Of a stretch of DNA of 64,000 nt, positions 524 through 15,425 are shown one piece after another. The position numbers and the translations under genes are program-made. The notes beneath the pieces were generated by a model. It had not been told where the DNA came from. It did not search any database and saw only the letters and a program-made list of their open reading frames with translations. Numbering within the stretch: the stretch's first letter is position 1; each line of letters begins with the position of its first letter. The DNA comes from Clostridia bacterium (GTDB lineage Bacteria > Bacillota > Clostridia > Christensenellales > CAG-138), in assembly GCA_017435905.1 (NCBI GenBank), contig JAFSEB010000040.1, positions 3,796 to 67,795 on the forward strand, written 5' to 3'.

Positions 524-531
524 AAAAACAG

Positions 532-1793: not shown

Positions 1794-1829
1794 ACACCCC
1801 GGGAAAATGCTTCCCGGGGTGTTTTTTTA
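1794..1829. terminator. Bidirectional terminator between convergent genes
   Basis: ACACCCCGGGAA (1794-1805) pairs with TTCCCGGGGTGT (1811-1822). A T7 run follows and an A-rich run precedes. Confidence 0.6.
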
Positions 1830-2357
1830 TTCGATGATTTCCGGTATGCGGGCATCGACATCGTACTGCGTATCGATCAGCAGGTAAGGGATGCCGCAGC
1901 GCTTCGCCTCCCGAAGCATGTGGGCATTGTCGCAAAGAAGGCTTTCCACGGTGCAGTCTTCATCATCAAGCCTGTTTTCGATGATGTTTGCGTGGCGGCG
2001 GATATCCTCATAATGGGAACGGATATAGCCTTCGCTCATCACAAGGCAGATGCAGCGGATCTTCGCCAGGTAGGCTTCGGAAAAATCCTTCCGGTAATCG
2101 CAGGGGATATAGCAGCCCTCCACGATGAGGTTCTGCCCGTTTTCGATGGCGGTCTTGATCATTTCACGCACAATGGGCCACAAAAGGGCGGTCAGTTCCC
2201 CGTCATCGGAAAGGGGCGTTAAGGCTGTGTGACCGCTGCGGATAAGCCCCATCTTTAAATGGTCGATGGAAAGGTAGGGGTAGTGATACCGCACAAGCAG
2301 CTTTTGCGCAAGGGCGGTCTTCCCCGTGTGGGATGCGCCCGATATCAGTATGACCAT
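1827..2357 (-). CDS. P-loop NTPase / small kinase-like protein
   Basis: Start chosen at ATG 2357 (MVILISGASHTGKT, Walker A) with AGGAGGGAAACGG upstream. The longer ORF to 2564 has no RBS and an implausible N-terminus. Confidence 0.6.
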   Translation of the reverse strand: MVILISGASHTGKTALAQKLLVRYHYPYLSIDHLKMGLIRSGHTALTPLSDDGELTALLWPIVREMIKTAIENGQNLIVEGCYIPCDYRKDFSEAYLAKIRCICLVMSEGYIRSHYEDIRRHANIIENRLDDEDCTVESLLCDNAHMLREAKRCGIPYLLIDTQYDVDARIPEIIE

Positions 2358-2535
2358 CCGTTTCCCTCCTGCTGTCTTCACTGCTTCTATGGTATGACAG
2401 AACCGAAGGGTGCGCAAGAGAAAACTTGCCCGACATGTTCGGGCTTTTTTATGCCCGGAAAGGCACGAAAAAGGCAACATGCATCCGTTCAGTACCAAAA
2501 ACGGTACTTTACGGGAAATTCCTCCGTTTTTTCCC

Positions 2536-2564
2536 TTGATAATTAAAGCCGGATGCACTACCAT
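2536..2564 (+). promoter_or_regulatory. Candidate sigma-70-type promoter of the phage-like operon
   Basis: TTGATA (2536-2541), a 17-nt spacer, then TACCAT (2559-2564). Confidence 0.3.
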
Positions 2565-2576
2565 GTTCTTAAAAAC

Positions 2577-2590
2577 AGAACAAATGTTCT
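2577..2590. promoter_or_regulatory. Cheo-box-like LexA operator (GAAC-N4-GTTC)
   Basis: AGAACAAATGTTCT is a perfect inverted repeat, AGAACA/TGTTCT. It lies 13 nt downstream of the candidate -10 and 25 nt upstream of the ATG at 2615. Confidence 0.45.
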
Positions 2591-2614
2591 AATTACAAAA
2601 GGAGGAAATCGAAC

Positions 2615-3181
2615 ATGAAACAGAAAAACGGTTCCTCCGTGCGCATGATCGAAAACCGCATGGTGGATCCCAACGCCCTTGCCGCACACTACGCCGCTGC
2701 GGCATACGGCGATACAAAGGAACAGGAAAAGGCGGCTTATCGGGAAACGGAAAAAAGGCTGTTCGCCCTTCGGGCGCTGCAGGCACGCATGGCGGAAACG
2801 AAGGAGGAGCTCAGCGAACTTGAAAGCCTTGGCATCGATGCGCTTCGGGAGCACAGCGCTTCCCTTGTCAGGGTGCTGCGCCCCGGCATGCGCCTTGAGC
2901 CGGAGGAGGTGCACCGCATGCAGCTTGATATGCTCCGCGGCAGGCTTGCGGCGGATGAACGGGAGTGGAAGCGGATGCGCATCGCCCTCGATTTCATTCG
3001 GGATGATCCCTACTACCCTGCCGTGGAGGCACGCTACCTGAAGGGCATGGGGGATGGGGATGTGGCGCAGCGGCTTTGCTGTGATCCTTCCACCGTGCGC
3101 CGCAACAGGGTGCGCCTTGTGCGCACGCTGGCCCTTCGCCTTTACGGGCTTGGAGGTGTGCTGTGCGTGAACTCTTACTGA
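2615..3181 (+). CDS. Phage late-gene regulator-like protein (ArpU/RinA / sigma-70 region-4-like HTH). It could double as a small terminase.
   Basis: 188 aa. The C-terminal ...YLKGMGDGDVAQRLCCDPSTVRRNRVRLVRTLALRLYG looks like a sigma region-4 HTH. It sits immediately upstream of terL and overlaps it. Confidence 0.5.
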   Translation: MKQKNGSSVRMIENRMVDPNALAAHYAAAAYGDTKEQEKAAYRETEKRLFALRALQARMAETKEELSELESLGIDALREHSASLVRVLRPGMRLEPEEVHRMQLDMLRGRLAADEREWKRMRIALDFIRDDPYYPAVEARYLKGMGDGDVAQRLCCDPSTVRRNRVRLVRTLALRLYGLGGVLCVNSY

Positions 3182-4506
3182 CGGGTACGCCCAATGCAAG
3201 GCAGGCGGAGTTTTTTCGGGCAACGGCACGCCACACCGCCTACGGCGGCGCCCGGGGCGGCGGCAAAAGCTGGGCCATGCGGCGAAAGCTGGTGCTGCTT
3301 TGCCTTGCTACGCCAAACCTCAATGCGCTGCTGCTGCGCCGCACGCTGCCGGAGCTGAGGGAAAACCATGTGGTGCCCCTTTTGAAGGAGCTTCACGGCG
3401 TGGCGGAATATAACGGCACGGAGCGCACCTTCCGCTTTCCCAACGGATCACGGCTGCGCCTTGGCTACTGCGACGGCGCCAACGATGTGTACCAGTATCA
3501 GGGGCAGGAATACGATGTCATCGGCATGGAGGAAGCCACCCATTTTACAGAGGAACAAATGCGCTTTTTGACCACCTGCAACCGTACCGTAAAGGCGGAT
3601 TTCCGCCCACGGATGTACTATACCTGCAACCCGGGCAACGTGGGGCACGCATGGGTGAAGCGGCTTTTTATCGACAGGCAGTACCAAAGCGGCGAACGGC
3701 CGGAGGATTATGCCTTCATCCCTGCAAGGGTGTGGGACAACAAGGTGCTGCTTGCTGCGGATCCCGATTATGTGCGCCAGCTGCAGGCTTTGCCGGAGGA
3801 GCTTCGCCGTGCCCACCTTGACGGCGACTGGGATGTGCACGCAGGACAGTATTTCCGTGAGTTTTCCCGGGAAAAGCACGTGGCGGAACCCTTTTCCGTC
3901 CCCAAATGGTGGCGGCGCTTCCGCTCCATGGATTGGGGGTACAACGATCCCTGCTGCGTGCTGTGGCATGCGGTGGATGGGGATGGGCGTGTGTTCACCT
4001 ACAGGGAGCTGTATGTGCGGCACACGCAGGCATCGGAGGTGGCAAAGAAGATCATCTCCCTGACGGGGGATGAGGAGATCGCCTATACCGTGGCATCGCC
4101 GGATATGTGGCAGAAACGTGGGGCGGTACTGAAGGCGGAGGGCGGCTTTACCGGCGAGAGCATCGCAGAGCTGTTTGCACGCTTTGGCGTTGCGCTGACC
4201 CCTGCGGACAACGCCCGTGTGGCAGGCTGGCAGCGTGTGAGGGAATACCTTGCGGAAAACGAGGCAGGGGAGCCTTATTGGCAGGTGTTTCCCGATTGCG
4301 TGAACCTGATCCGCACGCTGCCCCTTCTGCAGTTTGACTCCCACAACCGTGAGGATGCTGCCGATGGGGATGACCACGCACCGGAGGCGCTCCGCTATGC
4401 GCTGATGTCACGCCCCCGAAAAAGCGAACAGGCCGCAGCAAGGCGGCAGAAACGTTACGATCCTTTTTCCCAGCCCACCGCCCGTGCAGGCTTTATGGAG
4501 CGCTGA
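3163..4506 (+). CDS. terL: Phage terminase large subunit
   Basis: 447 aa. It has the Walker A-like GGARGGGKS, DVIGMEEATHF, and C-terminal acidic nuclease-type motifs (HLDGDWDV, EDAADGDDHAPEA). The GTG start follows GGAGGTG. Confidence 0.9.
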   Translation: MRELLLTGTPNARQAEFFRATARHTAYGGARGGGKSWAMRRKLVLLCLATPNLNALLLRRTLPELRENHVVPLLKELHGVAEYNGTERTFRFPNGSRLRLGYCDGANDVYQYQGQEYDVIGMEEATHFTEEQMRFLTTCNRTVKADFRPRMYYTCNPGNVGHAWVKRLFIDRQYQSGERPEDYAFIPARVWDNKVLLAADPDYVRQLQALPEELRRAHLDGDWDVHAGQYFREFSREKHVAEPFSVPKWWRRFRSMDWGYNDPCCVLWHAVDGDGRVFTYRELYVRHTQASEVAKKIISLTGDEEIAYTVASPDMWQKRGAVLKAEGGFTGESIAELFARFGVALTPADNARVAGWQRVREYLAENEAGEPYWQVFPDCVNLIRTLPLLQFDSHNREDAADGDDHAPEALRYALMSRPRKSEQAAARRQKRYDPFSQPTARAGFMER

Positions 4507-4565
4507 GGAAACAAACACAGGCATACAACAACACAATACAAAACAAAAAAGAGAGGAAACAAGAT

Positions 4566-6164
4566 ATGACCAACAGCAATCGAAACAAGACCGAACGCCT
4601 TTACGAACTTTTTGAAGAATACCGCAGCGCATATGCCGCCGAATGGGACCGCCTTGAGCGCTGCGAGCGCATCTACCGGGGCGACCACTGGCAGGATGTG
4701 CCGCAGCAGGATGAAAACGAGCCCCGACCCGTAACGCCGGTGCTGCAGTCCACCATTGAAAACGTCCGTGCGGACCTTATTGACAACATGCCGGAGGCTG
4801 TCATCGTCTCCGACGGGGCAGGGCATGAGCGTGTGGCGGAAATGCTCACCGCCCTCATTCGGGAAAACCACCGCCTTTGCCGCTTCGACAGGGAATATGC
4901 CAACATGATGCACGACCTGCTTGTGGGCGGCTACATGGTGCAGGAGACCGGCTACGACAGCGAGCTCAACGGCGGCTTCGGCGCAGCATTTCTCCGTGCG
5001 GTGGATCCCCACAGCATCATGTTCGATCCCCTTGTTGCGGATATCCGCCAGTCGAGGGCGATCTTCAAATTTGCACCCTATCCGCTGGATTGGTTCCGTG
5101 CCCATTATCCCGAGCAGGCGGCGGATATGCGGGAGGATATCTTCCGCCCCGTGCGTGTGCAGGATGACCACCTCCGGCAGGAAAACCGGGATATGGTGCT
5201 GCTCATCGAGGCATGGGAACGGGAATACGACAACGAAAGCGGCAGGCACCGTGTGCACATGACAAAGCTGGCAGGCGGCGTCATCCTTGAGGACAGCCGT
5301 GACCACAAGCCCCAGGGCTATTTTGCCCACGGGGAATATCCCTTTGTGGTGACGCCCCTGTTCCTCCGCAAGGGCACGCCCCTCGGCTACGGGTTTGTGG
5401 ATATGTTCGAGACCCAGCAGCGCTATGCGGATAAGCTCGACCAGATCATCCTGAAAAATGCGCTGATGGCATCCCACAACAAGCTGCTCATCACCGGCGC
5501 TTCCGGCTTCGACCCGGAGGATCTTCGCGACTGGTCCAAGGAGGTGCACCGGGGCGAAAGCCTTGCAGGCGTGACATGGTTCCCCACCGCACCGCTGCCG
5601 GGCTACCTTCTCAGCTACGGGGAGCACATCCGCCAAAGCATCCGTGAGGAATCCGGCACCAACGATTTTTCCCGTGGACAGACCTACGGCGGCGTTACGG
5701 CAGCCTCTGCCATCGCTGCGCTGCAGGAAGCCGGCAGCAAGCGCAGCCGCATGATCGCCCGGGCGGTGCACAGCGCCTTTGAGGAAGCCGTCCGTCAGGA
5801 GCTGGAGGTGGAGCGTGAGTTTTGCGTGCTGCCCCGCCGCATCACCCTTGAAAATGCGGAGACAGGCAGGGAGGAAGCCATCGCCTTCACCGGCGAGACC
5901 ATGTTCGAGCTTACCGCACGCAAAAACCGCCTGCCCCTTGAGTTCGGCGTCAGCGTCAAGGCGCAGAAGGAGAACCGCTTCAGCGTGGCGGCCCATAATG
6001 AGCTTGTGCTGAGCCTTGTGAAGCTCAACATGATCACCCCTGCCATCGGCCTTGATATGCTGCTTTTCGACGGCAAACGGGAAGCGCAGGCGAAGATGCG
6101 TGAGCATCTCCGCATGGAGCAGGAGCAGGCACAGCAGGCGCAGGCTGCACCGCTGCAGCGTTAA
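4566..6164 (+). CDS. Phage portal protein
   Basis: 532 aa with RBS AGAGAGGAAA, located directly after terL. Size, position and the N-terminal ...RIYRGDHWQ... region are typical of portal proteins. The family was not verified by HMM. Confidence 0.75.
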   Translation: MTNSNRNKTERLYELFEEYRSAYAAEWDRLERCERIYRGDHWQDVPQQDENEPRPVTPVLQSTIENVRADLIDNMPEAVIVSDGAGHERVAEMLTALIRENHRLCRFDREYANMMHDLLVGGYMVQETGYDSELNGGFGAAFLRAVDPHSIMFDPLVADIRQSRAIFKFAPYPLDWFRAHYPEQAADMREDIFRPVRVQDDHLRQENRDMVLLIEAWEREYDNESGRHRVHMTKLAGGVILEDSRDHKPQGYFAHGEYPFVVTPLFLRKGTPLGYGFVDMFETQQRYADKLDQIILKNALMASHNKLLITGASGFDPEDLRDWSKEVHRGESLAGVTWFPTAPLPGYLLSYGEHIRQSIREESGTNDFSRGQTYGGVTAASAIAALQEAGSKRSRMIARAVHSAFEEAVRQELEVEREFCVLPRRITLENAETGREEAIAFTGETMFELTARKNRLPLEFGVSVKAQKENRFSVAAHNELVLSLVKLNMITPAIGLDMLLFDGKREAQAKMREHLRMEQEQAQQAQAAPLQR

Positions 6165-6179
6165 CGGGAGGCGCTCCCC

Positions 6180-6386
6180 ATGAAAAAGTTTGAACGCATG
6201 ACGAAGAAGGGAGCGGAGGCAGGGCTTTCCTGCCTTCTCTCCATCTGCACGGATACGGAGCAGAAAGCGGCGGACAGGATCGCAGCGGCAAAGGTGCTCA
6301 TCGACTTCGGCCGCAAGGCGGAAGCAGCGGAGGATGGCGCACTTCGGGTGGTGCTGGAGGGCGTGCCGAAGGAGTTTTTATGTTAA
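6180..6386 (+). CDS. Small hypothetical protein (68 aa) in the phage-like operon
   Basis: A GGGAGG RBS lies 6 nt before the ATG. The gene is tightly packed between the portal gene and the 623-aa gene. No recognisable motif was found. Confidence 0.45.
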   Translation: MKKFERMTKKGAEAGLSCLLSICTDTEQKAADRIAAAKVLIDFGRKAEAAEDGALRVVLEGVPKEFLC

Positions 6387-6413
6387 AAAATTAAGAAAAG
6401 GAAGGAAAAATAC

Positions 6414-8285
6414 ATGTATTGGGAGAATTTATACAATAAGAAGAACAAGGTAAACAAGCCTGTGGAGCTGGATTATTTTCAGCAGGAAAAGGTGAAAGAG
6501 TACCGGCAGCTTGCCGATGATGCAAACCGCTGGCTGGATCTTCCTACGGTACCTTCACGGCTTTCCTCTTCGGGGATCTCTATACCGGGCTTTCTGCATG
6601 AGGAGCAGAATGTCAGGAACATGCAGGCAGCCCTCGGCGTAGAGGAAGACGGCGATTGGGGCCCCGTAACGGAAAAAGCATTCCGCACCACCCTTATCAA
6701 CCAGCGTGACGGGGCGGAAAACGCCATTTCGGAGATATTTGCCGCTGCTGCGGCGGAGCAGGAACGGGCGGAGAAGGCGCAGCCGCAGCTTGCCTACGGC
6801 ACGGCGCAGGTGGGGCAGTACCTTGCCGCACCGGCATCAGTACAGAAACCGGTCTACCTTACCGCAGACGGCAGCCGCACCAATGTACCCACCGGCACTT
6901 CCCCGAAAAAGGAACAGGTCTACCTTACCGCAGACGGCAAGCGCACCAACGTGCCGGGCATCACCGCAAGCCCCGGTTCCTCCGGCAGCAAGGGCAGCAC
7001 CGGTATTGCAGCCTATGACCGCACGATGCAAACGGCAGATGCTTCCAGCCTTGGCAGCACCGCAAAAAATACCCTTGCTGCGCCAAGTTATAACCGCACT
7101 GCCCTTACTGCAGACGAGCCCCACGGCGCCGCAGCGGAGCGTGGGAACATCTACAACACCGCAGACGGCAAACGGACGAATGTGGTAGGCGGCGCACGGA
7201 ACAGCGGCATTGGCAGGCCGACAGCCATGGAAAAAGGAGAACCCATTGCCCGCTTTGGCGGTGCAGTGCCCCAAAACAGCAGCCCGACCGACGGCTATCA
7301 AGGTGGGCCTGTGGATGAGACGGTGCTTAGCAGCAAGACAAGCGAGCTTTTGAGTAACGTAGCGAATCAGATGAAACAAACTTACTTAACATACAAAGTA
7401 GATGCTGAGCCGTGGAGTGAAGAATGGAACATGCAGCGAATGAAGAAAAAAGAGCTGCACGATAATTGGCAAAAGGCGCAGTGGCTTTATTGGGATTATC
7501 TGCTGAATCATGAAACGGATGAAATGAACGCAGATGATGTCTATGCAGTTTCACCGAATCTTTTGATTGATTTGGCTGTAAGCGATGGAAAGGATTCGAT
7601 TGCATCGCACGGATATAACAAGGACAATTATCCGCATGTTTCGGTTATAGATAATGAATTGAAACAGTTCAGAGATGAGGGTGCCTTATACACATATGCG
7701 GGCAGCAAATTGAACTATTATACAAAGGTTAGTGGTTTGGAGCATATGTGCAGCATCTATTCGGTGGATTGGGGAAACGGCAATGTTGAATTCGTTACAG
7801 GACCGATTGTAAGCGGAACAATAATCAAAAACGAAAAGAAAAACACGGAAACCCCAAATGTAATCATGCCGTTTGCTGCGAGCATAATTGGTGCGAAAAA
7901 CTACACCGCTGAAATGGAAAAGATATTCAGAGGCGCAAAAGTTGAGTATGAAGGGATCATTCATTCGCATCCAAGCTATTTATCTGATACTTATGGCTAT
8001 GATAATAACGATGAGTTTTCCTGGGGTGACGGATTAGCTGCGCTGCTTGCAGGCCAAATAACCTTGACAACACAAGATAGTACTATGTTTGTCCTGAACC
8101 AGGATGAGGCACTGGAGGTAGTGATATCAGGATTAAAGGCTGATATTGCAAGACTCTTAAAGAATAGCAACTTAGAAAAAAGAGATGAAATTGATTGGAA
8201 CTCTATCATCCAAAGCTCACAAGATTTCCGCAGGGGAAGAAATTTTACAACTCTTCCGTACCACGCTTTTGACGCACGGGAATAA
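6414..8285 (+). CDS. Modular 623-aa protein with a PG_binding_1-like motif, tandem repeats and a C-terminal HSHP...DEFSWGD (JAB/DUF4329-like?) domain. It is the candidate main gene of a polymorphic locus.
   Basis: RBS AAGGAAGGA. There is no signal peptide and no TM helix. NMQAALGVEEDGDWGPVTEKAFRT is a peptidoglycan-binding-type motif. The motif (V/I)Y(L/N)TADG(S/K)RTNV occurs three times. The C-terminus reads GIIHSHPS-x12-DEFSWGDG...ITLTTQDSTMFVL. Confidence 0.8.
   Translation: MYWENLYNKKNKVNKPVELDYFQQEKVKEYRQLADDANRWLDLPTVPSRLSSSGISIPGFLHEEQNVRNMQAALGVEEDGDWGPVTEKAFRTTLINQRDGAENAISEIFAAAAAEQERAEKAQPQLAYGTAQVGQYLAAPASVQKPVYLTADGSRTNVPTGTSPKKEQVYLTADGKRTNVPGITASPGSSGSKGSTGIAAYDRTMQTADASSLGSTAKNTLAAPSYNRTALTADEPHGAAAERGNIYNTADGKRTNVVGGARNSGIGRPTAMEKGEPIARFGGAVPQNSSPTDGYQGGPVDETVLSSKTSELLSNVANQMKQTYLTYKVDAEPWSEEWNMQRMKKKELHDNWQKAQWLYWDYLLNHETDEMNADDVYAVSPNLLIDLAVSDGKDSIASHGYNKDNYPHVSVIDNELKQFRDEGALYTYAGSKLNYYTKVSGLEHMCSIYSVDWGNGNVEFVTGPIVSGTIIKNEKKNTETPNVIMPFAASIIGAKNYTAEMEKIFRGAKVEYEGIIHSHPSYLSDTYGYDNNDEFSWGDGLAALLAGQITLTTQDSTMFVLNQDEALEVVISGLKADIARLLKNSNLEKRDEIDWNSIIQSSQDFRRGRNFTTLPYHAFDARE
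6851..6955 (+). repeat. In-frame tandem coding repeat (two 39-nt copies, 66-nt period)
   Basis: GGTCTACCTTACCGCAGACGGCA(G/A)(C/G)CGCACCAA(T/C)GT(A/G)CC occurs at 6851-6889 and 6917-6955. A degenerate third copy lies at 7149-7185. Confidence 0.8.
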
Positions 8286-8303
8286 TTAAAAGAGGAGACA
8301 AAC

Positions 8304-8744
8304 ATGGAAAAGAAGGGATATCTGCTTCTCTATACGCTTTGCATTGTGGAGGGCATTGCTCTGATCATATTGTGCGTGTGCGGCGGTGCGTTGGAACTGG
8401 TGCGGGGGCTGTTGGCGCTTTCAGCATATGACTACCCCAACTGGAATATGGAAGTGGCCGCCTATCCGAAAAAGATCGCGTATGTGATCGGCAGGGATAC
8501 GGAAATCGATCTTTCAGGTACTGTTGTCAGTTATACCTTCGGGTGGCACGAACCGGAAGAGGACGAGATTTATGCTTATGATGACCCCATATTCGAAGTG
8601 GATACCTCGGCAGTGGATCTGACGAAGGAAGGGACATATGAAGTCGTCATTTCAACGGTTGATCCTACAGACTATGGTGCCGAATGCATCTTGCCGATCC
8701 AAGTGATCGCACCGCAGGAACAAAGTGCACATGTTATGCCCTGA
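8304..8744 (+). CDS. Single-pass membrane protein with one Big_3-like Ig domain (paralog A)
   Basis: RBS AGAGGAG. The N-terminal TM is LLLYTLCIVEGIALIILCVCGG, followed by YPKKIAYVIGRDTEIDLSG...DLTKEGTYEVVI...CILPIQVIAP. Confidence 0.75.
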   Translation: MEKKGYLLLYTLCIVEGIALIILCVCGGALELVRGLLALSAYDYPNWNMEVAAYPKKIAYVIGRDTEIDLSGTVVSYTFGWHEPEEDEIYAYDDPIFEVDTSAVDLTKEGTYEVVISTVDPTDYGAECILPIQVIAPQEQSAHVMP

Positions 8745-8760
8745 TGCGGGAGGGAAGACG

Positions 8761-9168
8761 ATGAAAAAGCAAAAAGATAATTGGCTGATAACATTGTGGA
8801 TCATTGAAAGCATTGCTCTTATCTGTGCTTTGGTCATGGTCGGACGGGTGCGGAATCTCGATGCAAGCAGGGATACAGATAATCCCGATTTTTATGCAAA
8901 AATCAGAAATTTTCCCGATAAAGTGGTTTATGTGGCGGGCGTGGATACGGAATTGGATCTGCGTGGCTGCACCATATCGGAATCGAGGCTTTTTGGTGCG
9001 GACGACGGGACCGCGGAAGATCTTGTCTCCAACTTAGGCACCCACTTTACCGTTGTGTCGGAAGATATCGACTTTTCCACCCCGGGCATTTATGAAGTGC
9101 GCATCCGTGGTTATGATACGGAATGTGCCTTCCCCATCGAAGTCATCGACCCTGCGGCATTGGAGTAA
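8761..9168 (+). CDS. Single-pass membrane Big_3-like Ig-domain protein (paralog B)
   Basis: Start ATG 8761 follows GGGAGGGAAG. The TM is WLITLWIIESIALICALVMVG, followed by FPDKVVYVAGVDTELDLRG...FSTPGIYEVRI...CAFPIEVIDP. Confidence 0.75.
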   Translation: MKKQKDNWLITLWIIESIALICALVMVGRVRNLDASRDTDNPDFYAKIRNFPDKVVYVAGVDTELDLRGCTISESRLFGADDGTAEDLVSNLGTHFTVVSEDIDFSTPGIYEVRIRGYDTECAFPIEVIDPAALE

Positions 9169-9206
9169 AACCCAAGCCCCGGCACACGGCTTTCCGTGCG
9201 TCGGGG
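9022..9206 (+). repeat. Direct repeat copy 1 (3' end of paralog B plus junction stem-loop)
   Basis: About 97% identical by eye to 11863-12046 (roughly 5 mismatches and 1 indel in 185 nt). Confidence 0.85.
9177..9206 (+). repeat. Conserved cassette-junction stem-loop
   Basis: CCCCGGCACACGG-CTTT-CCGTGCGTCGGGG. Homologous hairpins lie at 10161-10187, 11078-11107, 12018-12046 and 13950-13977. Only a weak T tract follows. Confidence 0.6.
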
Positions 9207-9632
9207 TTTGATGCACCGTTTCCCGGCTATCTCAGGCTGACCGAAAAGAGTGTCGAATACCTCTGCATGCTGCATTCGCATCCCTCACGGCGTGATCCAT
9301 CTGATGATAACGATGAGTTTTCCTGGGGCGACGGCCTTGTTGCAGCTGTTTCCGGCAAAATCTATCTGACCACGCCGCATGGGAATGTTTATGCTTTAAG
9401 TCAGGAAGATGCTAAAACAGTAATTGATACAGGACTCGATTGGGACAAAACTGTTTTTGCCCAAAAGAAGAAGCCGCTTTTGAAGGCGTTGTGGTATGGG
9501 CTCAATCCAACTGATGCTTTTTACTATAATGTGCTTGCTGACTACGATGAACATAGGAAGAAAGCGGCACAAACACTCCCCGGATACAATTATGAGACGT
9601 TTGATGCTAAGACCTATAACACATATAAATGA
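9207..9632 (+). pseudogene. Orphan 5'-truncated copy (CT-1) of the 623-aa protein's C-terminal domain
   Basis: The frame reads ...FPGYLRLTEKSVEYLCMLHSHPSRRDPSDDNDEFSWGDGLVAAVSGKIYLTTPHGNVYAL... and ends at 9632. It starts right at the hairpin with no RBS. The first in-frame ATG after the hairpin is 9267 (MLHSHPS). ORF 9123-9632 overlaps paralog B in another frame. Confidence 0.55.
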
Positions 9633-9655
9633 TCTTTGATACAAGGAAGGCTAAT

Positions 9656-10153
9656 ATGGAGCAAGGGAGCAAGAAGCGGATTTCGAAAGAAATAATTGTG
9701 AAATATGTGGCTGCAATGGCGATTATTATGGTATCTGCGCAGGTGATCTTCAGGGGCTGTTTTCCGTTTTTCTTGCTTGCGAATGGAGTTGAGTCCACAT
9801 ATCCCCAAGGCTACCGTATTCACACGCTCCCTGCAAAACAGGTGTATATAGCGGGACAGGATACGGAACTGGACCTTACCGGGGGCGAAATCTGCCATAG
9901 CAATGAACAAAACGAATTTCCTGAACAGTATGGTTACTGCACAACGGAATACTGTGAAGACCCTATTCCCATGGAAGCGGCATTGGCGGAATATGAATGG
10001 CTGAGCGTTGAAACCGATGCGGATTTTTCCATCCCGGGAGAATATAAGGTGACATTTTGGTATCCTAATTTCTTTGATGGTATGGATGATGGCAAGATGC
10101 TCTCCTGCTCCTTCCCCATCGTTGTCATTGACCCCAAAGATGCAGTCAGATAA
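9656..10153 (+). CDS. Single-pass membrane Big_3-like Ig-domain protein (paralog C)
   Basis: Start ATG 9656 follows AAGGAAGG. The TM is YVAAMAIIMVSAQVIF, followed by LPAKQVYIAGQDTELDLTGG...FSIPGEYKVTF...CSFPIVVIDPKDAVR. Confidence 0.7.
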   Translation: MEQGSKKRISKEIIVKYVAAMAIIMVSAQVIFRGCFPFFLLANGVESTYPQGYRIHTLPAKQVYIAGQDTELDLTGGEICHSNEQNEFPEQYGYCTTEYCEDPIPMEAALAEYEWLSVETDADFSIPGEYKVTFWYPNFFDGMDDGKMLSCSFPIVVIDPKDAVR

Positions 10154-10160
10154 AACGGAT

Positions 10161-10187
10161 CCGGCGTGCGGTTTTTCCGCGCGCCGG
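10161..10187 (+). repeat. Conserved cassette-junction stem-loop (variant)
   Basis: CCGGCGTGCGG-TTTTT-CCGCGCGCCGG, located 8 nt after the stop of paralog C. Confidence 0.5.
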
Positions 10188-10603
10188 GCTTGATGTACCG
10201 CTCGCCCGGCTATCTGAGCTTGATCGAAAACGGAGCAAAAGTGGAGCACCTCGGCATGCTGCATTCGCATCCGTCGAGAGCAAATGGCGAAGATAATGAC
10301 GAGTTTTCTTTGGGCGATGCTATTGTTTCTGTAGTGTCAAGAAGAATCTACTTGACTACGCCAGAGGGATATGTATACGCACTGGACAGGAAAGACGGCT
10401 GGAAACTTATCGTGCCCGGATATAAAAGGGAACGCGTAAATGCCGCTGATTGGCAACTTTATTACGGAAGCGTCACGGAAGAAGAACTTCCTAAATGGAT
10501 CGTGGAAGCTTTAGCCGAAGATTATGTTGCGAAGCAGGATGCAAAATCAAAAGGAAGTAATTTTGTGACGTTTGACATTAATACCTATAACACACGAAAG
10601 TAG
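10188..10603 (+). pseudogene. Orphan 5'-truncated copy (CT-2) of the 623-aa protein's C-terminal domain
   Basis: ...SPGYLSLIENGAKVEHLGMLHSHPSRANGEDNDEFSLGDAIVSVVSRRIYLTTPEGYVYAL...TFDINTYNTRK*. No RBS is present. Candidate starts are GTG 10166 (inside the hairpin) or ATG 10193. Confidence 0.55.
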
Positions 10604-10611
10604 AGGGTTTT

Positions 10612-11070
10612 ATGGACAAAAAACAGACAAGCCGAAGCTGGCTTAAAACGCTGCTGATTGTGGAAAATGTGATCATCATCGCAGTTTTGCTGCACTTTGG
10701 TGTTAAGGAGATCAAGAGAGTGGTAAGTTATATTCGTTATCCAAGCTCTGTGTATGTAATCAACATACATCGCTATCCGGACAAGCTGGTTTACGTTGCC
10801 GGAGAAGATACGGTGCTGGATCTTACCGGAGGCGAACTGTGCCTGAGCAGCGAGGGCGGCTTTACAAACGGGTTTCCTTGCGAATTTAATCCGGAACGGA
10901 AAAACATGGGAGAAGGATATTGTGAGATCGTATATTCTATGACAGAAGATGAATATGAAACGAATGCAGATCTTTCCGTGCCAGGCAGATACTATATTCG
11001 CTTTTCGCTGGATAGAGGAACTTGCTCCTTCCCCATCGTGGTCATCGACCCTAAAGATGCGGTGAAATAA
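10612..11070 (+). CDS. Single-pass membrane Big_3-like Ig-domain protein (paralog D)
   Basis: RBS AGAGGG. The TM is WLKTLLIVENVIIIAVLLHFGV, followed by YPDKLVYVAGEDTVLDLTGG...LSVPGRYYIRF...CSFPIVVIDPKDAVK. Confidence 0.75.
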   Translation: MDKKQTSRSWLKTLLIVENVIIIAVLLHFGVKEIKRVVSYIRYPSSVYVINIHRYPDKLVYVAGEDTVLDLTGGELCLSSEGGFTNGFPCEFNPERKNMGEGYCEIVYSMTEDEYETNADLSVPGRYYIRFSLDRGTCSFPIVVIDPKDAVK

Positions 11071-11077
11071 GCCCAAG

Positions 11078-11107
11078 CCCCGGCACATGGCTTTCCGTGC
11101 GCCGGGG
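11078..11107 (+). repeat. Conserved cassette-junction stem-loop
   Basis: CCCCGGCACATGG-CTTT-CCGTGCGCCGGGG. Confidence 0.55.
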
Positions 11108-11163
11108 CGAATGCACTCTTTGTCCGGCCGGGGCTTCTTAAAGGAAAGCGGAGCAAAGACCAA
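11108..11163 (+). pseudogene. Short remnant of a third orphan C-terminal cassette
   Basis: CGAATGCAC...TCCGGCCGGGGCTTCTTAAAGGAAAGCGGAGCAAAGACCAAG parallels the first ~55 nt of CT-1 and CT-2 (..PGYL.L.E.GAK..). Homology then stops and the next Ig-like gene begins. Confidence 0.4.
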
Positions 11164-11188
11164 GGGCAGTAAATAAAGTGAGGAATCA

Positions 11189-11623
11189 ATGAAAAAAAGC
11201 CATTTGCAGCACGCTTTGCTGCTCTATGTGATTTGTGTTGCTGAAAGCTTGTTTTTAATTGCGTATTCAGCAGCGTGGGTTGGCTCGCGGATCATGGTTT
11301 CCATGTCGAACCCGAGGGACACGGTCAACAGGGTAACGGTCGTGAACTACCCGGAACAGTTGGTATATGTTCTTGGTATAGATACGGAACTGAAACTTGA
11401 CGGTTTGACTGTGGCTTATGCAAAATACGGGGATGATGTGACCGAAAATGATCTCTACGAAATAGGCAGTCAATATGTAACAGTGGATACATCCCGGGTC
11501 GATCTTACAACGCCGGGCGTATACGAAGCATACATCGTGCTGTTTGACACATGCTGCATATTGCCGATAGAGGTTATCGATCTACAGCAATATGCTGCAG
11601 CGGAAGGGGTGGAGCATCGGTGA
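11189..11623 (+). CDS. Single-pass membrane Big_3-like Ig-domain protein (paralog E)
   Basis: RBS GTGAGGA. The TM is ALLLYVICVAESLFLIAYSAAWVG, followed by YPEQLVYVLGIDTELKLDG...LTTPGVYEAYI...CCILPIEVID. Confidence 0.75.
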   Translation: MKKSHLQHALLLYVICVAESLFLIAYSAAWVGSRIMVSMSNPRDTVNRVTVVNYPEQLVYVLGIDTELKLDGLTVAYAKYGDDVTENDLYEIGSQYVTVDTSRVDLTTPGVYEAYIVLFDTCCILPIEVIDLQQYAAAEGVEHR

Positions 11624-12009
11624 AAGCAAAAAAAGACAACTGGCTGATCATATTGTGTGTTGTGGAAAGCATGGCGATCCTTTTGCTCGCAGCATATCAA
11701 TTGCACAGGAAGTACGGCTCGCATATTGAATATTATGCGCTGGCGTCCCATTTACCCAACAAGATCGCATATGTGGCAGGCGTGGATACAGAGCTCGACC
11801 TGACCGGTGCCACCGTTATCGAGTCAAGCAACACAGCGTATGCGGTGGGCGAGGAATACGACCTTGTCTCCAACCTTGGCACCCACTTTACCGTTGTGTC
11901 GGAAGATATCGACTTTTCCACCCCGGGCATTTATGAAGTGCGCATCCGTGGTTATGATACGGAATGTGTCTTCCCCATCGAAGTCATCGACCCTGCGGCA
12001 TTGGAGTAA
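11620..12009 (+). CDS. Single-pass membrane Big_3-like Ig-domain protein (paralog F)
   Basis: The GTG start at 11620 overlaps the stop of paralog E (GTGA) and follows GGAAGGGGTGGAG. The TM is WLIILCVVESMAILLLAAY, followed by LPNKIAYVAGVDTELDLTG. The C-terminal 48 aa are nearly identical to paralog B. Confidence 0.7.
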   Translation: MKAKKDNWLIILCVVESMAILLLAAYQLHRKYGSHIEYYALASHLPNKIAYVAGVDTELDLTGATVIESSNTAYAVGEEYDLVSNLGTHFTVVSEDIDFSTPGIYEVRIRGYDTECVFPIEVIDPAALE

Positions 12010-12046
12010 AACCAAAGCCCCGGCACACGTTTTCCGTGCGTCGGGG
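11863..12046 (+). repeat. Direct repeat copy 2 (3' end of paralog F plus junction stem-loop)
   Basis: About 97% identical to 9022-9206. The hairpin is at 12018-12046. After it only about 10 nt (CGAATGC..) of the orphan-cassette 5' end remain. Confidence 0.85.
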
Positions 12047-12122
12047 CGAATGCTTTTAAAATGGCAAATGCAGTATGCTGCCTGAGGGCGGTATTTGACG
12101 GGATCCGCCGAAGAAAGGCAAG

Positions 12123-12812
12123 CTACTCCCGGCAGCTTGGAGTGCAGGTATGAATGGTCATGATCTTCATCAGGGTGCCGCTTTCTTCGTCCACGGCGGA
12201 ATCAAAGGTCATCTTTGTGCTGAAATCGGCGGATGTGTCGGAAGTGACGGTGAGAGACTCATCAAACGCAGTCGTTCTGAACCACCGCATCTGCATATCA
12301 AGAAGCGCACGGCTTTCCTGCGGATGTTGCGAAGCAAGGTCAGGTGTGTAGATCTCATACAGGGCATCAAGCATTGCCTGAAGTGATACGGGGATCTCAT
12401 CGGGGGCTTCATCCTTTGGCACTACATAGCTGATGATCACCTTGTGTACGGGCAGGTCTGCGTGCATGGGCGGCCAGATACGGGAAAAGCCGGTAAGGGA
12501 AAAGGCGATAAAGGTATCATCCTCCGTGTGGGTGGACATGTTGCGGATATAGAGATCATAGGGCGGCCCGGGGGCTTTCCAGTATCCGTCCGCAAGGATC
12601 TCCACGCCGTCATCGGCAAGGGCTTCATTGCAGCGTGCGATGAGTGCATCGGAGCGGATCTCCAGCCCTGCTTTTTTTCGTTCCCGGGCGGCGGAGGCGA
12701 TGTCGGAGCCGGTCAGCCACTTTGCAATAAAAAGGATGCATGCAAAAACCGCTGCAGCAATCCATATCATGCGGCGAAGGGTGCGGGTCTTTTTGGCGGA
12801 TATGTTTTGCAT
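12123..12812 (-). CDS. Membrane-anchored hypothetical protein (229 aa) on the opposite strand inside the array
   Basis: Start ATG 12812 lies 7 nt after AAGGAG. It has an N-terminal basic stretch plus the TM IWIAAAVFACILFIAKW. No family motif was recognised. Confidence 0.6.
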   Translation of the reverse strand: MQNISAKKTRTLRRMIWIAAAVFACILFIAKWLTGSDIASAARERKKAGLEIRSDALIARCNEALADDGVEILADGYWKAPGPPYDLYIRNMSTHTEDDTFIAFSLTGFSRIWPPMHADLPVHKVIISYVVPKDEAPDEIPVSLQAMLDALYEIYTPDLASQHPQESRALLDMQMRWFRTTAFDESLTVTSDTSADFSTKMTFDSAVDEESGTLMKIMTIHTCTPSCRE

Positions 12813-13015
12813 AGCGGTGCTCCTTACGCTTTTTTCCAATATAGCATGAAAGACGGCATGCGTAAAGCACGGTGAGGTGTCTTATTGACGCACGGGACAG
12901 AAAGGAATATGCTTAGACTGAAGATGACACAGCTTTTGCGCAGCATACGGCTGCGAAAAACGTGGTTCGTATTATATTGGTCACCCGAAACAAACGAAAA
13001 AAGGAGGCGCTGCAC

Positions 13016-13486
13016 ATGGAAAAACAGGAAAAACGCAATAACCTGCTGCGAAGGATCCTGACGGCAGAAAACCTGCTGCTCCTGCTTTTGATCGGCTTTT
13101 TATGGATGCGGTCCTGCGTGGAGAATTTCGACGGTGTGGAGATTCTTTATGATGCCGGCATCCACCGTTGGCCGGATAAGCTCACCTATGTGATCGGCGA
13201 GGATACGGCGCTTGACCTGACGGGCGGCGTGATCTGCGCCCACGAGTATGACCGGCCGGATGAACCTGCCCGTTCCTGCGTTTCCTTTGCAGGGAAAGAA
13301 ATCGACCACGGCGAGGACAGCTTTACCTACACCATGCTGGAAGCCTGGGAAGACGGGGAATTGACATCGGATATCGACTTTACACGGGAAGGGGTATACA
13401 CCGTCAGGATCCTGCATCAGGATTGGACAGAACTGTGTTTCCCCGTAACGGTGGTGGCGCCGGACAGCCCGGCGGCGCCGCACTGA
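13016..13486 (+). CDS. Single-pass membrane Big_3-like Ig-domain protein (paralog G)
   Basis: Start ATG 13016 follows AAGGAGG. The TM is ILTAENLLLLLLIGFLWM, followed by WPDKLTYVIGEDTALDLTGG...FTREGVYTVRI...CFPVTVVAP. Confidence 0.7.
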   Translation: MEKQEKRNNLLRRILTAENLLLLLLIGFLWMRSCVENFDGVEILYDAGIHRWPDKLTYVIGEDTALDLTGGVICAHEYDRPDEPARSCVSFAGKEIDHGEDSFTYTMLEAWEDGELTSDIDFTREGVYTVRILHQDWTELCFPVTVVAPDSPAAPH

Positions 13487-13504: not shown

Positions 13505-13945
13505 ATGGAACGAAAACAGAGCAGCTGGGTGAAAACGCTTTTTATCGTGGAAAACGCCATCCTTGCGGCGGTGCTGCTTTGCTATCTGCTGGTTAAGGGA
13601 ATCATGTGGTATGAAGACGAGTGGGTGCGCCACGGCAACATCCACCGCTATCCCACAAAGCTCACCTATGTGGCAGGTGTGGACAAAGAGCTTGACTTGA
13701 CGGGCGGCGAGGTCTGCTTCAGCACCGGCTTAGACCAATCCAAAGGCATATTCTGCGCTTCCGATGCGGCCCGTGCGGACGGGCAGAAAGGGCGCTGCAA
13801 GGCGATCCTGCCCATGGCGGAGGCGAAGGTTTCCACCAATGCGGATCTGGACGTGCCGGGGCAGTATTATGTGCAGGTGGAATACCGGGATAGCACCTGC
13901 TTCTTCCCCATCGTGGTCATCGACCCCAAAGATGCGGTGAAATAA
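13505..13945 (+). CDS. Single-pass membrane Big_3-like Ig-domain protein (paralog H)
   Basis: RBS AAAGGAGA. The TM is WVKTLFIVENAILAAVLLCYLLV, followed by YPTKLTYVAGVDKELDLTGG...LDVPGQYYVQV...CFFPIVVIDPKDAVK. Confidence 0.75.
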   Translation: MERKQSSWVKTLFIVENAILAAVLLCYLLVKGIMWYEDEWVRHGNIHRYPTKLTYVAGVDKELDLTGGEVCFSTGLDQSKGIFCASDAARADGQKGRCKAILPMAEAKVSTNADLDVPGQYYVQVEYRDSTCFFPIVVIDPKDAVK

Positions 13946-13949
13946 ACAA

Positions 13950-13980
13950 ACAGGCGCACGGCTTTCCGTGCGCCTGTTTT
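13950..13980. terminator. Terminator at the end of the array (homologous to the junction stem-loops), shared with the convergent gene
   Basis: ACAGGCGCACGG-CTTT-CCGTGCGCCTGT, followed by TTTT and preceded by an A-rich run. Confidence 0.7.
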
Positions 13981-13993: not shown

Positions 13994-15274
13994 TTACATG
14001 AATTCCACCGCATCGAAGCGGAAGCCGAGGGGTGCGGCCGCATCCGCTTTGAGGGTGAGGGAAACGGCGGCAAGCTCTGCTGCCTGTGCGGTGCCTGGCG
14101 TGCCCGAAAGGAGCATGCCGTACACGGTGAGACCTTCTGCCGTGCGCACGGCGTCATCCATGCGGAAGGCATAGGGCGCACGGGGGTGGATGGGGATGCG
14201 GTACACGCCGTTTTCATATGCGGTGCCGTCGCCGAGGGTGGCAAGGTCGCCGGGCAGGCTGCCTGTGAAGTAAGATGTGAAGGCGGCGGCGTAATCCGCT
14301 TCGGTCACCTCCGCAAAATAGCCTTCTTCTTCGCCGGTGGTGAGCATATAGGTCATGAAGGCGCTTGCCGCATAGGGGGAGGGGCTGCCGCCTGTAAAGC
14401 CCTCGTAATTGGGGGCGCAGGCAGCGGCGATGGCGGCAAAGCCCGGCAGCAGATGCTCGTATTCCTCCGTGCTGAGGGCATCGCCCACGGCGGCAGGGTA
14501 CAGGGCGCTGCGCTCCACCGTAAAGGAAAGGATGCCCTGTTCCTCCGGGGCAAGAACGCCTGCACGGATGTAGAAGGTATAGCCTGTCTCCGACACGGTG
14601 AAGCCGCTCACAAGGTCAAGGGCCAGGCGCACATCCTCCGGGGCGATATCCGCATAATAGGCGTCGCCGTTGCGGTCGATCTCGTTGAAGATCTGCTGTG
14701 CCACAAGGGCTTCCGGCTCATACTGCCCGGAAAGGGCGGCGAAGGAATATTCCGTGCCGGCGCTGTCCAGCACCAGCGCATGGGGGATGACCTCCTTCGC
14801 TTCGCCGAAATAAACGGTCTCAAGGAACAATATGGCGGTGTATTCGCTGCCGCCGAGAAGCGCATCCGTCACTTCCCAGCTGACGGCGGTGGAAGGGGCT
14901 GCTTCGCCCTCCACCCGGTCCGCAAGGGGCAGCCGCTCCTCACGCACCCGGTCGATGAGCTCCTCCTCATAAAGGGAGACCGCCTCGTTGCGCCCATCCC
15001 CCTCGGGGAACAGGGGCAGGGAGTAGGTGAGCACATAATCCGCCGTTTCCGTATCGCTGCCCTCCGGGAAAAAGAGGGTCTGCTCCTTAAAGGAAGAAAC
15101 GATGGCTTCCCCCGGCGCATCGGCGGCAGGGGTCTCCTGCGGCTCCTCCGTGGGGGCAGGGGTGGAGATCACGCTTTCGCTGCCCACATCCAAAGCGGGA
15201 GCATCCTCTTTGCAGGCGGAAAGGGAAACCATAAGAAACGCTGCAAGGCATGCAGCCAAAAGCCGTTTTGTCAT
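13994..15274 (-). CDS. Putative lipoprotein (426 aa)
   Basis: Start ATG 15274 follows GGAGGT. The signal peptide MTKRLLAACLAAFLMVSLSAC carries a lipobox Cys. The mature part was not assigned (possibly DUF3298/DUF4163-like, unverified). Confidence 0.7.
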   Translation of the reverse strand: MTKRLLAACLAAFLMVSLSACKEDAPALDVGSESVISTPAPTEEPQETPAADAPGEAIVSSFKEQTLFFPEGSDTETADYVLTYSLPLFPEGDGRNEAVSLYEEELIDRVREERLPLADRVEGEAAPSTAVSWEVTDALLGGSEYTAILFLETVYFGEAKEVIPHALVLDSAGTEYSFAALSGQYEPEALVAQQIFNEIDRNGDAYYADIAPEDVRLALDLVSGFTVSETGYTFYIRAGVLAPEEQGILSFTVERSALYPAAVGDALSTEEYEHLLPGFAAIAAACAPNYEGFTGGSPSPYAASAFMTYMLTTGEEEGYFAEVTEADYAAAFTSYFTGSLPGDLATLGDGTAYENGVYRIPIHPRAPYAFRMDDAVRTAEGLTVYGMLLSGTPGTAQAAELAAVSLTLKADAAAPLGFRFDAVEFM

Positions 15275-15425
15275 CGGCATTACCTCCGTAGCTGATAGAA
15301 AAACAGTAACACAACAACACGCACAATTCAACCGAAAAGATTGTAAACAACGCACGGGGATTGCCTTTCCCTGCGCTTGTTGCTATACTGAAACCAATTC
15401 ATGAAAGAAAAAAGGAGCGTTTTTT

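Follow-up and report, generated by a model that had tools for sequence, protein, structure and literature searches.

Orphan toxin/immunity cassettes are already well known for Rhs, contact-dependent growth inhibition (CDI), MafB, and type VI secretion system (T6SS) effectors. In Salmonella Typhimurium, homologous recombination between a main rhs gene and an orphan rhs-CT/rhsI module was shown over an arm of 522 bp at 95% identity (Koskiniemi et al. 2014, PMC3967940), and in Vibrio cholerae incoming T6SS effector-immunity modules displace old immunity genes and 3' remnants of effector genes downstream (Kirchberger et al. 2017, PMC5361080). The MafB-CT/MafI cassettes of Neisseria (Jamet et al. 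2015, PMC4287609) are reported to be promoter-less, 5'-truncated alternative C-termini with their own immunity genes, arrayed 3' of the full-length gene. MuF phage toxins (Jamet et al. 2017, PMC5576092; Bxa, PMC11699363) are large portal-adjacent proteins with a conserved N-terminus and a C-terminal toxin domain that varies; small putative immunity genes follow, in some cases as a pair. Neither the MuF nor the Bxa paper mentions orphan cassettes (the word "orphan" has 0 occurrences), and the Bxa paper only speculates on extra immunity genes in such clusters. Indeed, orphan cassettes for toxins encoded beside phage portal genes were not described in the literature that we searched. Here we analyze a 64,000-nucleotide stretch of a Clostridia bacterium metagenome-assembled genome (MAG; GCA_017435905.1, contig JAFSEB010000040.1, positions 3,796 to 67,795; the whole stretch is called the window). 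In it, a gene for a 623-residue protein (the main gene, 6414–8285) is followed by an array of eight genes for immunoglobulin (Ig)-like proteins, interspersed with fragments of the main gene's own C-terminal part (CT-1 and CT-2) and shorter stubs. All features lie on the + strand unless stated otherwise.

We consider it likely that the array is a set of orphan modules belonging to a rare polymorphic toxin locus, in which the CT fragments and stubs are displaced former or alternative tails that keep the conserved core as a landing pad. As in orphan rhs-CT/rhsI (PMC3967940), a downstream fragment appears to supply an alternative C-terminus with its own immunity gene, is without translation-initiation and export signals, and retains a stretch of homology with the main gene where recombination would take place. 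The array differs from rhs-CT/rhsI in having no RHS repeats and no DPxGL motif. Rhs and CdiA orphan modules carry RHS/FHA repeats and a DPxGL or VENN boundary motif, whereas the boundary here falls inside a JAB-like core, that is, within the catalytic domain. The arm is 22–60 nucleotides (nt) here, and recombination is read from metagenome contigs, while that in Salmonella was experimental.

As in the V. cholerae arrays (PMC5361080), members are nearer to other strains' genes than to one another. Unlike those arrays, the present one has no T6SS, and its remnants keep the conserved core and an identical hairpin junction, because of which both crossovers can be homologous here. From MafB-CT/MafI (PMC4287609) it differs in protein family, in secretion route (MafB has a signal peptide), and in phylum. 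The portal-adjacent architecture and conserved N-terminus are those of MuF toxins, but there is no MuF Pfam domain, a 68-residue open reading frame (ORF) follows the portal, and no complete prophage surrounds the locus. The domain resembles Tox-JAB-2/DUF4329 (PMC3482391) in its E, H[ST]H, S, and D residues, in its C-terminal place in a polymorphic protein, and in its remote homology to a protein with RHS repeats and DUF4329. It departs from Tox-JAB-2 in scoring below the gathering threshold, in an extra hypervariable helical extension of ~60 residues, and in putative immunity proteins that are transmembrane (TM)-anchored and Ig-like rather than Imm-NTF2-2. Finally, unlike integron cassettes, the modules have no adjacent integrase, and their hairpin is a terminator homologue rather than attC.

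Results and Discussion

CT-1 and CT-2 are truncated copies of the main C-terminus

CT-1 occupies 9207–9632 within an open frame of 9117–9632, and CT-2 occupies 10193–10603. BLASTP aligns the main protein with the CT-1 frame at 35% identity (E 1e-17, main residues 510–622) and with CT-2 at 26% identity (E 3e-13, main residues 507–623), and the two fragments with each other at 42% identity (E 3e-29). Hidden Markov model (HMM) mapping finds no N-terminal or middle main-gene segment 5' of either fragment. The two methods agree that both are 5'-truncated copies of the main C-terminus without the N-terminal ~500 residues, as a reading made from the letters of the DNA alone (the sequence-only reading) had proposed. 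That reading had placed the homology at main residues ~505–560, with the last 70–80 residues of each copy diverged from the main protein and from the other copy. The homology holds, but the match reaches the C-terminal end (507–623). An alignment of 13 sequences resolves three zones: the core (MLHSHP...DNDEFSWGD...GKIYLTTPHG.VYAL), a hypervariable stretch of ~40–70 residues, and a conserved end formed by the last ~15 residues (G.N[FY].TFD.K.Y.TR). Since these last residues are conserved, the hypervariable stretch is internal, and only the central ~40–70 tail residues have diverged. On the basis of this alignment, the CT tails are diverged homologues, not unrelated sequences. In the main gene the conserved core (HSHPS...FSWGD...ITLTT) lies at 7962–8072 and the tail at 8073–8285. 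In CT-1 a leader (9207–9266) precedes the core (9267–9374), which is followed by the hypervariable tail and the conserved end. Parts of CT-1 and CT-2 are annotated in the NCBI MAG "Clostridia bacterium" as hypothetical proteins IJO10_04095 and IJO10_04105.

The main proteins are themselves mosaics. Their first ~284 residues are conserved and the remainder is replaceable, as evidenced by mosaic alignment. In the window this corresponds, by HMM map and mosaic alignment, to a conserved N-terminal part at 6414–7265, followed by a variable middle at 7266–7955 that includes the first half of the JAB-like domain. The related locus L011 is 96.3% identical in nucleotides to window 6001–7266 and then continues into a different middle and tail (L numbers denote related loci and P numbers their proteins). 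Similarly, the first ~270 amino acids of P0014, from L018, are 95% identical to the main protein, while its C-terminal half is unrelated.

The C-terminal half of P0014 (encoded at L018 4764–6492), which also exists as a 5'-truncated orphan (L019 203–1567), comprises ~300 residues and has no family match. It may represent a second toxin type in the system.

The same tails occur in main and orphan positions

For three C-termini, one sample has the sequence at the main position and another has it as an orphan. In the first case, an ENA contig (L003) matches window 8000–8711, comprising the main tail and Ig1, over nt 239–950 at 99.6% identity. The same contig matches window 9128–9334, comprising an Ig end, the hairpin, and the 5' part of CT-1, over nt 63–271 at 92.9%. 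The two matches overlap precisely in the core sequence GATAAYGATGAGTTTTCYTGGGG (window 8000–8032 / 9302–9334). Because both BLAST matches join there, the main tail/Ig module sits in an orphan slot of L003, and the crossover, as judged from these alignments, is in the conserved core at 8000–8032 / 9302–9334. In L001 and L002 the main tail, Ig1, and Ig2 lie behind another junction (99.6% in nucleotides). In the second case the main tail of P0015 is 87% identical to the orphan P0007, which lies behind a terminator and a promoter-like element. In the third, the C-terminal half of P0014 is 95% identical to a 409-residue, 5'-truncated copy behind an Ig gene in L019. The contigs that support exchange are short metagenome assemblies of 0.9–3.5 kb, in which a chimera at the repeated core is conceivable; L001, L002, and L003 are concordant though they come from three separate records (two Logan runs and one ENA assembly). 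These correspondences lend direct comparative support, with a crossover in the core, to the earlier proposal of orphan, unexpressed cassettes whose core acts as a homology arm in the manner of cdiA-CT and rhs-CT.

We propose that new tail and Ig modules would recombine into the expressed gene, so that CT-1, CT-2, and the stubs would have been pushed out. One crossover would fall within the second, conserved half of the JAB core (HSHP...DNDEFSWGD...IYLTTP) and the other in upstream main-gene or downstream Ig/hairpin sequence. The core retained in an orphan would then offer further exchange a landing pad, or homology arm, and could give an incoming tail-Ig-hairpin-leader-core segment its homology on the right-hand side. 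With this right-hand homology both crossovers can be homologous, and the structure of L003 is as predicted.

A more active version of this scheme, in which the cassettes are a switching reservoir kept for intragenomic swapping of CT-1 or CT-2 into the expressed gene, would draw on the L003 crossover lying exactly in the core common to the main gene and CT-1. It would also draw on the CT-1 and CT-2 frames, which are unbroken from core to stop codon, and on the experimental precedent of the Salmonella Rhs orphan (PMC3967940). The shared arm, however, is short. The main gene and CT-1 have 60 nt in common at 82%, with a 22-nt perfect run (8005–8026 = 9307–9328), and the main gene and CT-2 share a run of only 11 nt, compared with the 522 bp at 95% in Salmonella. 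The sequence-only reading had pointed to population data as the place to find recombinants in which CT-1 or CT-2 replaces the main C-terminus. No full-length gene with either tail was found in 5.8 billion proteins, and what the data do hold is the main tail in orphan slots (L001–L003). In addition, L015, a second sample, shows no change in the arrangement; that of CT-2 is 98.8% identical to the window. Because the arm is only 22–60 nt, we rate displaced relics or landing pads with selected immunity genes above a ready switching reservoir, which we regard as unlikely.

Each fragment is fused to a terminator-like hairpin

The array contains five hairpins. Hairpins 1–4 come 8–10 nt past the stop codons of Ig2, Ig3, Ig4, and Ig6, and the fifth follows Ig8. 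They lie at 9173–9210 (hairpin 1, junction J1; -29.2 kcal/mol, z -4.4), 10160–10188 (hairpin 2, J2), 11077–11108 (hairpin 3, J3; -29.5 kcal/mol, z -4.4), 12017–12047 (hairpin 4), and, at the array end with a T-run after it, 13948–13979 (hairpin 5; -27 kcal/mol, z -5.9). Folding energies are -26 to -29 kcal/mol, with z scores of -4.3 to -5.9 in four of the five and -1.8 in the second; hairpin 2 carries compensatory changes relative to hairpin 1. When seven distinct hairpin copies are aligned, 93% of cells are paired, with 2 compensatory pairs. All three copies of the 24-nt hairpin core in the 64-kb window, against 0 expected, belong to the array. The stem, of 13 bp and perfect type, is homologous to that of the terminator closing the array, hairpin 5. 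Hairpins 1–4 have the central stem in common with hairpin 5 but carry the CT leader where hairpin 5 has its T-run, and they are not called as terminators. Because the leader replaces the T-run, J1–J4 read as the terminator hairpin of the preceding module, minus its U-tract, fused to mid-gene sequence.

The junction alignment shows the shared hairpin and leader at J1–J3, bearing out the observation that the CT copies each begin directly after a hairpin. The hairpin had also been described as ending the preceding Ig-like gene, which needs correction, as it lies 3' of the Ig stop codon and not within the gene. At J4 a leader remnant of 7–9 nt (CGAATGC) is present. Thus shorter stubs do occur at two further junctions, as leader copies at 11109–11157 and 12048–12056. 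Stub 3 (11109–11176) consists of the CT leader MHSLSGRGFLKESGAK with an ATG at 11111, a deletion at about 11157, and then a short out-of-context tail and a stop codon; stub 4 runs from hairpin 4 to 12056, with an ATG at 12050. In L014, nt 1–482 match window 10676–11157 at 98.3% and are followed by a full, frameshifted CT. Since L014 carries a whole CT at that place, stub 3 is a deletion derivative. This result, together with frameshifted orphans in L006 and L010, confirms that decay has taken place, in line with the view that the stubs are decayed cassettes.

Every junction of this kind (type A) has one breakpoint, a terminator hairpin without its U-tract followed by (C/T)GA/TGATG and the leader. 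The hairpin junction is lineage-specific; L004 and L012 carry another terminator together with a promoter-like element. The type-A breakpoint most likely arose once and would then have spread as copies through unequal or homologous recombination. Across six syntenic loci, orphans are cut at varied points (at or within the core, or else in the middle or N-terminal region), and some, in addition to the frameshifted ones, are fused to other sequence.

Two other roles for the hairpins were considered and rejected. Mobile hairpins of the repetitive extragenic palindromic (REP) or integron attC type do not fit the array-only occurrence, the homology to the terminal terminator, or the island ORFs, every one of which is accounted for, with no recombinase or integrase among them. 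Programmed frameshifting or stop read-through that fuses Ig to CT, with the hairpin as stimulator, is excluded because the Ig-to-CT frame relation differs among the junctions (-1 at J1, in frame at J2, +1 at J3).

A promoter-like TTGACG-17/18-TATGCT element is found 5' of Ig7 at window 12885–12913. Related, conserved promoter-like copies stand before orphan CTs, past a proper terminator, in L004 (8930–8975 and 9910–9955), L012 (40–75), and L001, and the orphan modules of these lineages may have their own promoter.

The fragments lack the Shine-Dalgarno signals of their neighbors

Shine-Dalgarno (SD):anti-SD energies of the 13 accepted genes (terS, terL, portal, 68-residue ORF, main, and Ig1–8) range from -6.3 to -11.8 kcal/mol, with single values of -8.0 for main, -9.0 for Ig1, -10.8 for Ig2, and -7.4 for Ig3. 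All candidate CT starts range from -2.2 to -5.6 kcal/mol, in line with the statement of the sequence-only reading that the copies have no ribosome-binding site, and the best candidate SD, a GGGG, is paired within the hairpin as its 3' arm. Directly behind the hairpin stands a conserved ATG. It is in frame in CT-2 (10193), stub 3 (11111), L013, L014, and L016, whereas in CT-1 (9211) and L003 a 1-nt gap shifts it out of frame; at the CT-2 ATG the SD energy is only -2.5 kcal/mol. As the fragments are without a usable ribosome-binding site and without the catalytic Glu and four β-strands of the domain described below, they are probably not made as active proteins, and we infer that CT-1 and CT-2 are silent.

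These same data bear on whether the fragments could be stand-alone small genes. Proteins of ~115–140 residues would then start at the post-hairpin ATG or at the Met of MLHSHPS and act, for example, as toxin modulators, with the hairpin regulating translation. Conservation of the ATG and its place in frame in five copies are consistent with this possibility, as are the proteins annotated by gene callers (P0001, P0017) and the promoter-like TTGACG...TATGCT before the fragments in L004, L012, and L001. The dN/dS of 0.38 between CT-1 and L013 also points this way, though it derives from only 21 substitutions clustered in one loop, too few to separate selection from mosaicism. On the other hand, the initiation signals are weak, a hairpin of -29 kcal/mol occludes the best of them, and CT-1 and L003 have the ATG in the wrong frame. 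Loci also differ in where the copies are truncated, several copies are frameshifted or mere stubs, and the catalytic Glu and four strands are gone. We judge stand-alone genes to be very unlikely.

Start and stop codons overlap at two places in the array, ATGA at 9629–9632 (CT-1 stop and an alternative Ig3 ATG at 9629) and GTGA at 11620–11623 (Ig5 stop and Ig6 start), which suggests translational coupling.

The main C-terminus resembles Tox-JAB-2/DUF4329

Scans of the main protein, the CTs, the Ig proteins, the 68-residue ORF, and a reverse-strand gene in the array against Pfam, PHROGs, NCBIfam, and PADLOC gave nothing above threshold, and a PDB sequence-profile search gave no match. Below threshold, Pfam DUF4329 (PF14220; gathering score 28.6) matches CT-1, CT-2, the L006 main protein, and P0015 at 14–17.5 bits. 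The matches cover 57–111 of the 116 profile positions in the CTs and 19–111 in full-length relatives; the window main protein has no Pfam DUF4329 match. An exhaustive profile search of 1.84 billion proteins returned just 39 representative clusters, one of which, P0047, has RHS repeats and a C-terminal DUF4329 (25.6 bits). With hhalign the domain (main residues 404–567) aligns to P0047 at 96.6% probability (E 5e-10), pairing EHMC with ERVA, HSHP with HTHP, FSWGD with FSDGD, and IYLTTPHG.LYAL with MYLVAPSGEIYVIN. DUF4329 corresponds to the toxin domain Tox-JAB-2, which is marked by E, H[ST]H, S, and D (Zhang et al. 2012, PMC3482391), and these signature residues are present in the main protein in EHMC (residue 443, 7740–7751), HSHPS (517), and FSWGD (535).

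The P0047 domain stops just past the VYAL-type strand, and the hypervariable tail is therefore an added C-terminal extension. In the AF2 model of main residues 400–623 (pLDDT 82.8) this extension forms three helices. The CTs begin near model residue 95–100, past a helix at 23–41 and strands at 45–83 (one helix and four strands). They keep the metal ligands HSH...S..D and are without catalytic Glu 443 and about half of the fold. The best Foldseek matches, though weak, are mostly JAMM/MPN proteins, including BRCC36, an Npl4-containing complex, an Rpn11 homologue, and CSN5, with APOBEC also present. The signature residues and the profile-level homology support a Tox-JAB-2/DUF4329-like, putatively metal-dependent domain at the main C-terminus, with a predicted hypervariable helical extension of about 60 residues.

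No MuF domain (PF04233, PF06152) is matched in Pfam at E ≤ 0.1 in five main proteins, there are no RHS or haemagglutinin Pfam matches (RHS/FHA repeats) in the main proteins, and the N-terminal part of the window main protein has no hydrophobic segment (maximum KD19 0.93). This part does contain three copies of a ~12-residue motif (VYLTADGxRTNVP / IYNTADGKRTNV) at 6844–6955 and 7150–7184. A peptidoglycan-binding-like segment, DGDWGPVT, is encoded at 6648–6671, and in related proteins it scores just under Pfam thresholds.

The Ig-like genes travel with the tails

Ig1 (8304–8744) and Ig2 (8761–9168, ATG start) follow the main gene, Ig3 (9656–10153) follows CT-1, and Ig4 (10612–11070) follows CT-2. 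Ig5 (11189–11623) and Ig6 (11620–12009, GTG start), like Ig7 (13016–13486) and Ig8 (13505–13945), are orphan Ig pairs without a CT. HMM matches have E values of 1e-48 for Ig1, 1e-53 for Ig2, 1.5e-52 for Ig3, and 1e-55 for Ig4, and Ig5 and Ig6 also match. All eight proteins have a single N-terminal hydrophobic segment after 2–5 Lys/Arg residues, and the model shows a long helix and then a β-sandwich with Ig-like structural neighbors, which supports a predicted N-in, domain-out topology. This outward-facing topology, taken with the recurrence of sub-threshold peptidoglycan-binding matches in the window main protein and its relatives (the L006 main protein, P0031, P0034, and P0039), suggests an extracytoplasmic, possibly cell-wall, target.

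A Glu is conserved inside the predicted TM helix of seven of the eight Ig proteins, within (I/V/A)(V/I/A)E(G/S/N) (IVEG, IIES, IVEN, VAES, VVES, TAEN). An intramembrane Glu is unusual for a simple membrane anchor.

Each tail type has one to three Ig-like genes behind it, and the linkage is kept between samples: the main tail, Ig1, and Ig2 occur together in L001 (99.6%), and Ig3 accompanies the CT-1 tail in L013 and L015, as Ig4 does the CT-2 tail in L015. In L013 the CT-1 tail is 92% identical in nucleotides, and its leader is intact and in frame. From this linkage the Ig proteins are putative cognate immunity proteins, Ig1 and Ig2 for the main tail, Ig3 for CT-1, and Ig4 for CT-2. Transcriptional read-through, which the missing U-tract of hairpins 1–4 would permit, could keep the Ig genes expressed and so protect against neighbors' toxins. 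Ig7 and Ig8 most resemble the pair of Ig genes behind the L004 main gene (50% and 64%), more than they do any window paralogue. The 3' ends of Ig2 (9019–9188) and Ig6 (11860–12029), including the hairpin start, are 97% identical over 170 nt, whereas the remainder of the two proteins is about 60% identical, and substitutions between the window and L015 are clustered at 9278–9303. Both patterns argue for gene conversion within and between arrays, recent in the case of Ig2 and Ig6.

If the array were inert debris, produced only by tandem duplication on the spot and by decay, with neither CTs nor Igs under selection for a role, it would contain stubs and frameshifted copies such as those seen, and the identical junction breakpoint fits duplication as well. 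Debris would not lead one to expect that several Ig genes are nearer to other loci than to paralogues in their own array, that all eight (8/8) keep intact frames, SD sequences, and TM segments, or that modules at 99% identity lie in different positions across samples. We consider this explanation highly improbable.

The locus adjoins a terminase-portal remnant

Upstream of the main gene lie a terS-like gene (2615–3181), the large terminase gene terL (3163–4506; PHROGs match E 3.5e-52), the portal gene (4566–6164; PHROGs match E 1.4e-54), and, directly 5' of main, the conserved 68-residue ORF (6180–6386). The main gene thus has a MuF-type portal-adjacent position, with this single ORF between it and the portal. 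GC content falls from about 60% to 40–50% over 7200–12000. The same island, comprising terS, terL, portal, the 68-residue ORF, main, Ig genes, and orphans, is present in the MAGs SIG369 (L004/L005), UMGS922 (L006), BRZ_CQ bin28 (L007), GCA_017398525 (L018), and several metagenome contigs, with identical gene order from terS to main in L004, L006, and L018. In comparisons with L004 and L006, terS, terL, portal, and the 68-residue ORF have dN/dS values of 0.06–0.15 at dS 0.5–1.4, indicating strong purifying selection. In the whole 64-kb window the only phage genes are terS, terL, and portal; no capsid, tail, lysis, or integrase genes are present, and the remainder consists of cellular and housekeeping genes. 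The island is flanked by an M20 peptidase, a β-lactamase-like gene, TyrRS, glycogen genes, and ABC transporters. Under the criteria of the MuF paper (PMC5576092), the locus would count as a prophage remnant and not a temperate prophage.

This neighborhood raises the alternative that toxin and immunity are not involved at all. The main protein would then be a cell-wall enzyme of the phage particle or an ejection protein, the Ig proteins would be superinfection-exclusion or receptor-type factors, and phage-host conflict would diversify both. The adjoining portal and terminase genes, the sub-threshold peptidoglycan-binding matches named above, and the predicted outward-facing Ig domains are all compatible with this reading. 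The missing capsid, tail, lysis, and integrase genes are not, and neither are the homology of the C-terminal domain to the C-terminal toxin domain of an RHS protein nor the wholly different C-terminal half on the same N-terminus in P0014, which is typical of polymorphic toxins. A phage-particle role is, in our estimation, quite unlikely.

Several neighboring features deserve mention. Just 5' of terS, the gene at 1827–2564 (- strand) has weak AAA_33/Zeta-toxin-like kinase matches and a homologue at the equal place in L018. The gene at 12123–12839 (- strand), 238 residues with a predicted membrane anchor, is without a match in the Pfam, PHROGs, and NCBIfam family scans. Homologues stand at the same array place, with an orphan CT behind them, in L001, L007, and L019, and the membership of this gene in the system is uncertain. 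Scans of viral contigs gave no CT-domain relative and one portal relative. The latter, L017 (IMGVR_UViG_3300029305_009777, 1215–4634), encodes a related portal (63% identity) followed directly by a homologue of the lipoprotein gene at window 13994–15355 (- strand). This variant of the island is without the main gene and the entire array.

Weighing the interpretation

Taken at the level of sequence comparison, the hallmarks of a polymorphic toxin are found here: a conserved N-terminus with swapped C-termini, downstream genes that travel with them, start-less C-terminal copies farther 3', and identical or near-identical C-termini in main and orphan positions of different samples. A number of points nevertheless weigh against reading the array as displaced toxin tails. 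We infer toxicity and immunity, as well as the direction of exchange, be it displacement of old tails or re-use of orphans, and any RecA dependence, from comparative rather than experimental data. The main protein has no signal peptide and no recognized trafficking or secretion domain in Pfam, NCBIfam, or PHROGs, the DUF4329 scores fall below gathering, and the Foldseek matches are weak (E 3e-3 to 0.7, TM 0.2–0.3). Membrane-anchored extracellular Ig-like proteins would be an unusual type of immunity. The shared arms are short, and no full-length counterpart of CT-1 or CT-2 was recovered. Finally, some translation of the CTs may occur, given their long open frames, the in-frame ATG of CT-2, and the dN/dS of 0.38.

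Conclusions

On the comparative evidence, the window holds a well-supported orphan-cassette array in a rare, phage-remnant-associated toxin family. What sets it apart is, in the first place, that it comes from uncultured gut/rumen-type Clostridia and that metagenomes give direct evidence of modules being exchanged. Exchange takes place within the catalytic JAB-like core and not at a domain boundary, the element that varies is a short helical extension, and the putative immunity proteins are Ig-like domains, membrane-anchored and facing outward, which points to a target outside the cytoplasm, in the cell wall.

A conserved terminase-portal-toxin mini-island without other phage parts also raises the question of how the toxin is delivered. 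At least four MAG lineages keep the terS-terL-portal-68-residue ORF segment under strong purifying selection, and capsid, tail, and lysis genes are missing from its surroundings. It is tempting, if a long shot, to suggest that this segment is a domesticated phage packaging/portal apparatus that loads or exports a polymorphic, probably cell-wall-directed JAB-type toxin, with the orphan array and its exchange in the middle of the catalytic domain as the diversification engine. If true, this would be a new delivery route for interbacterial toxins.

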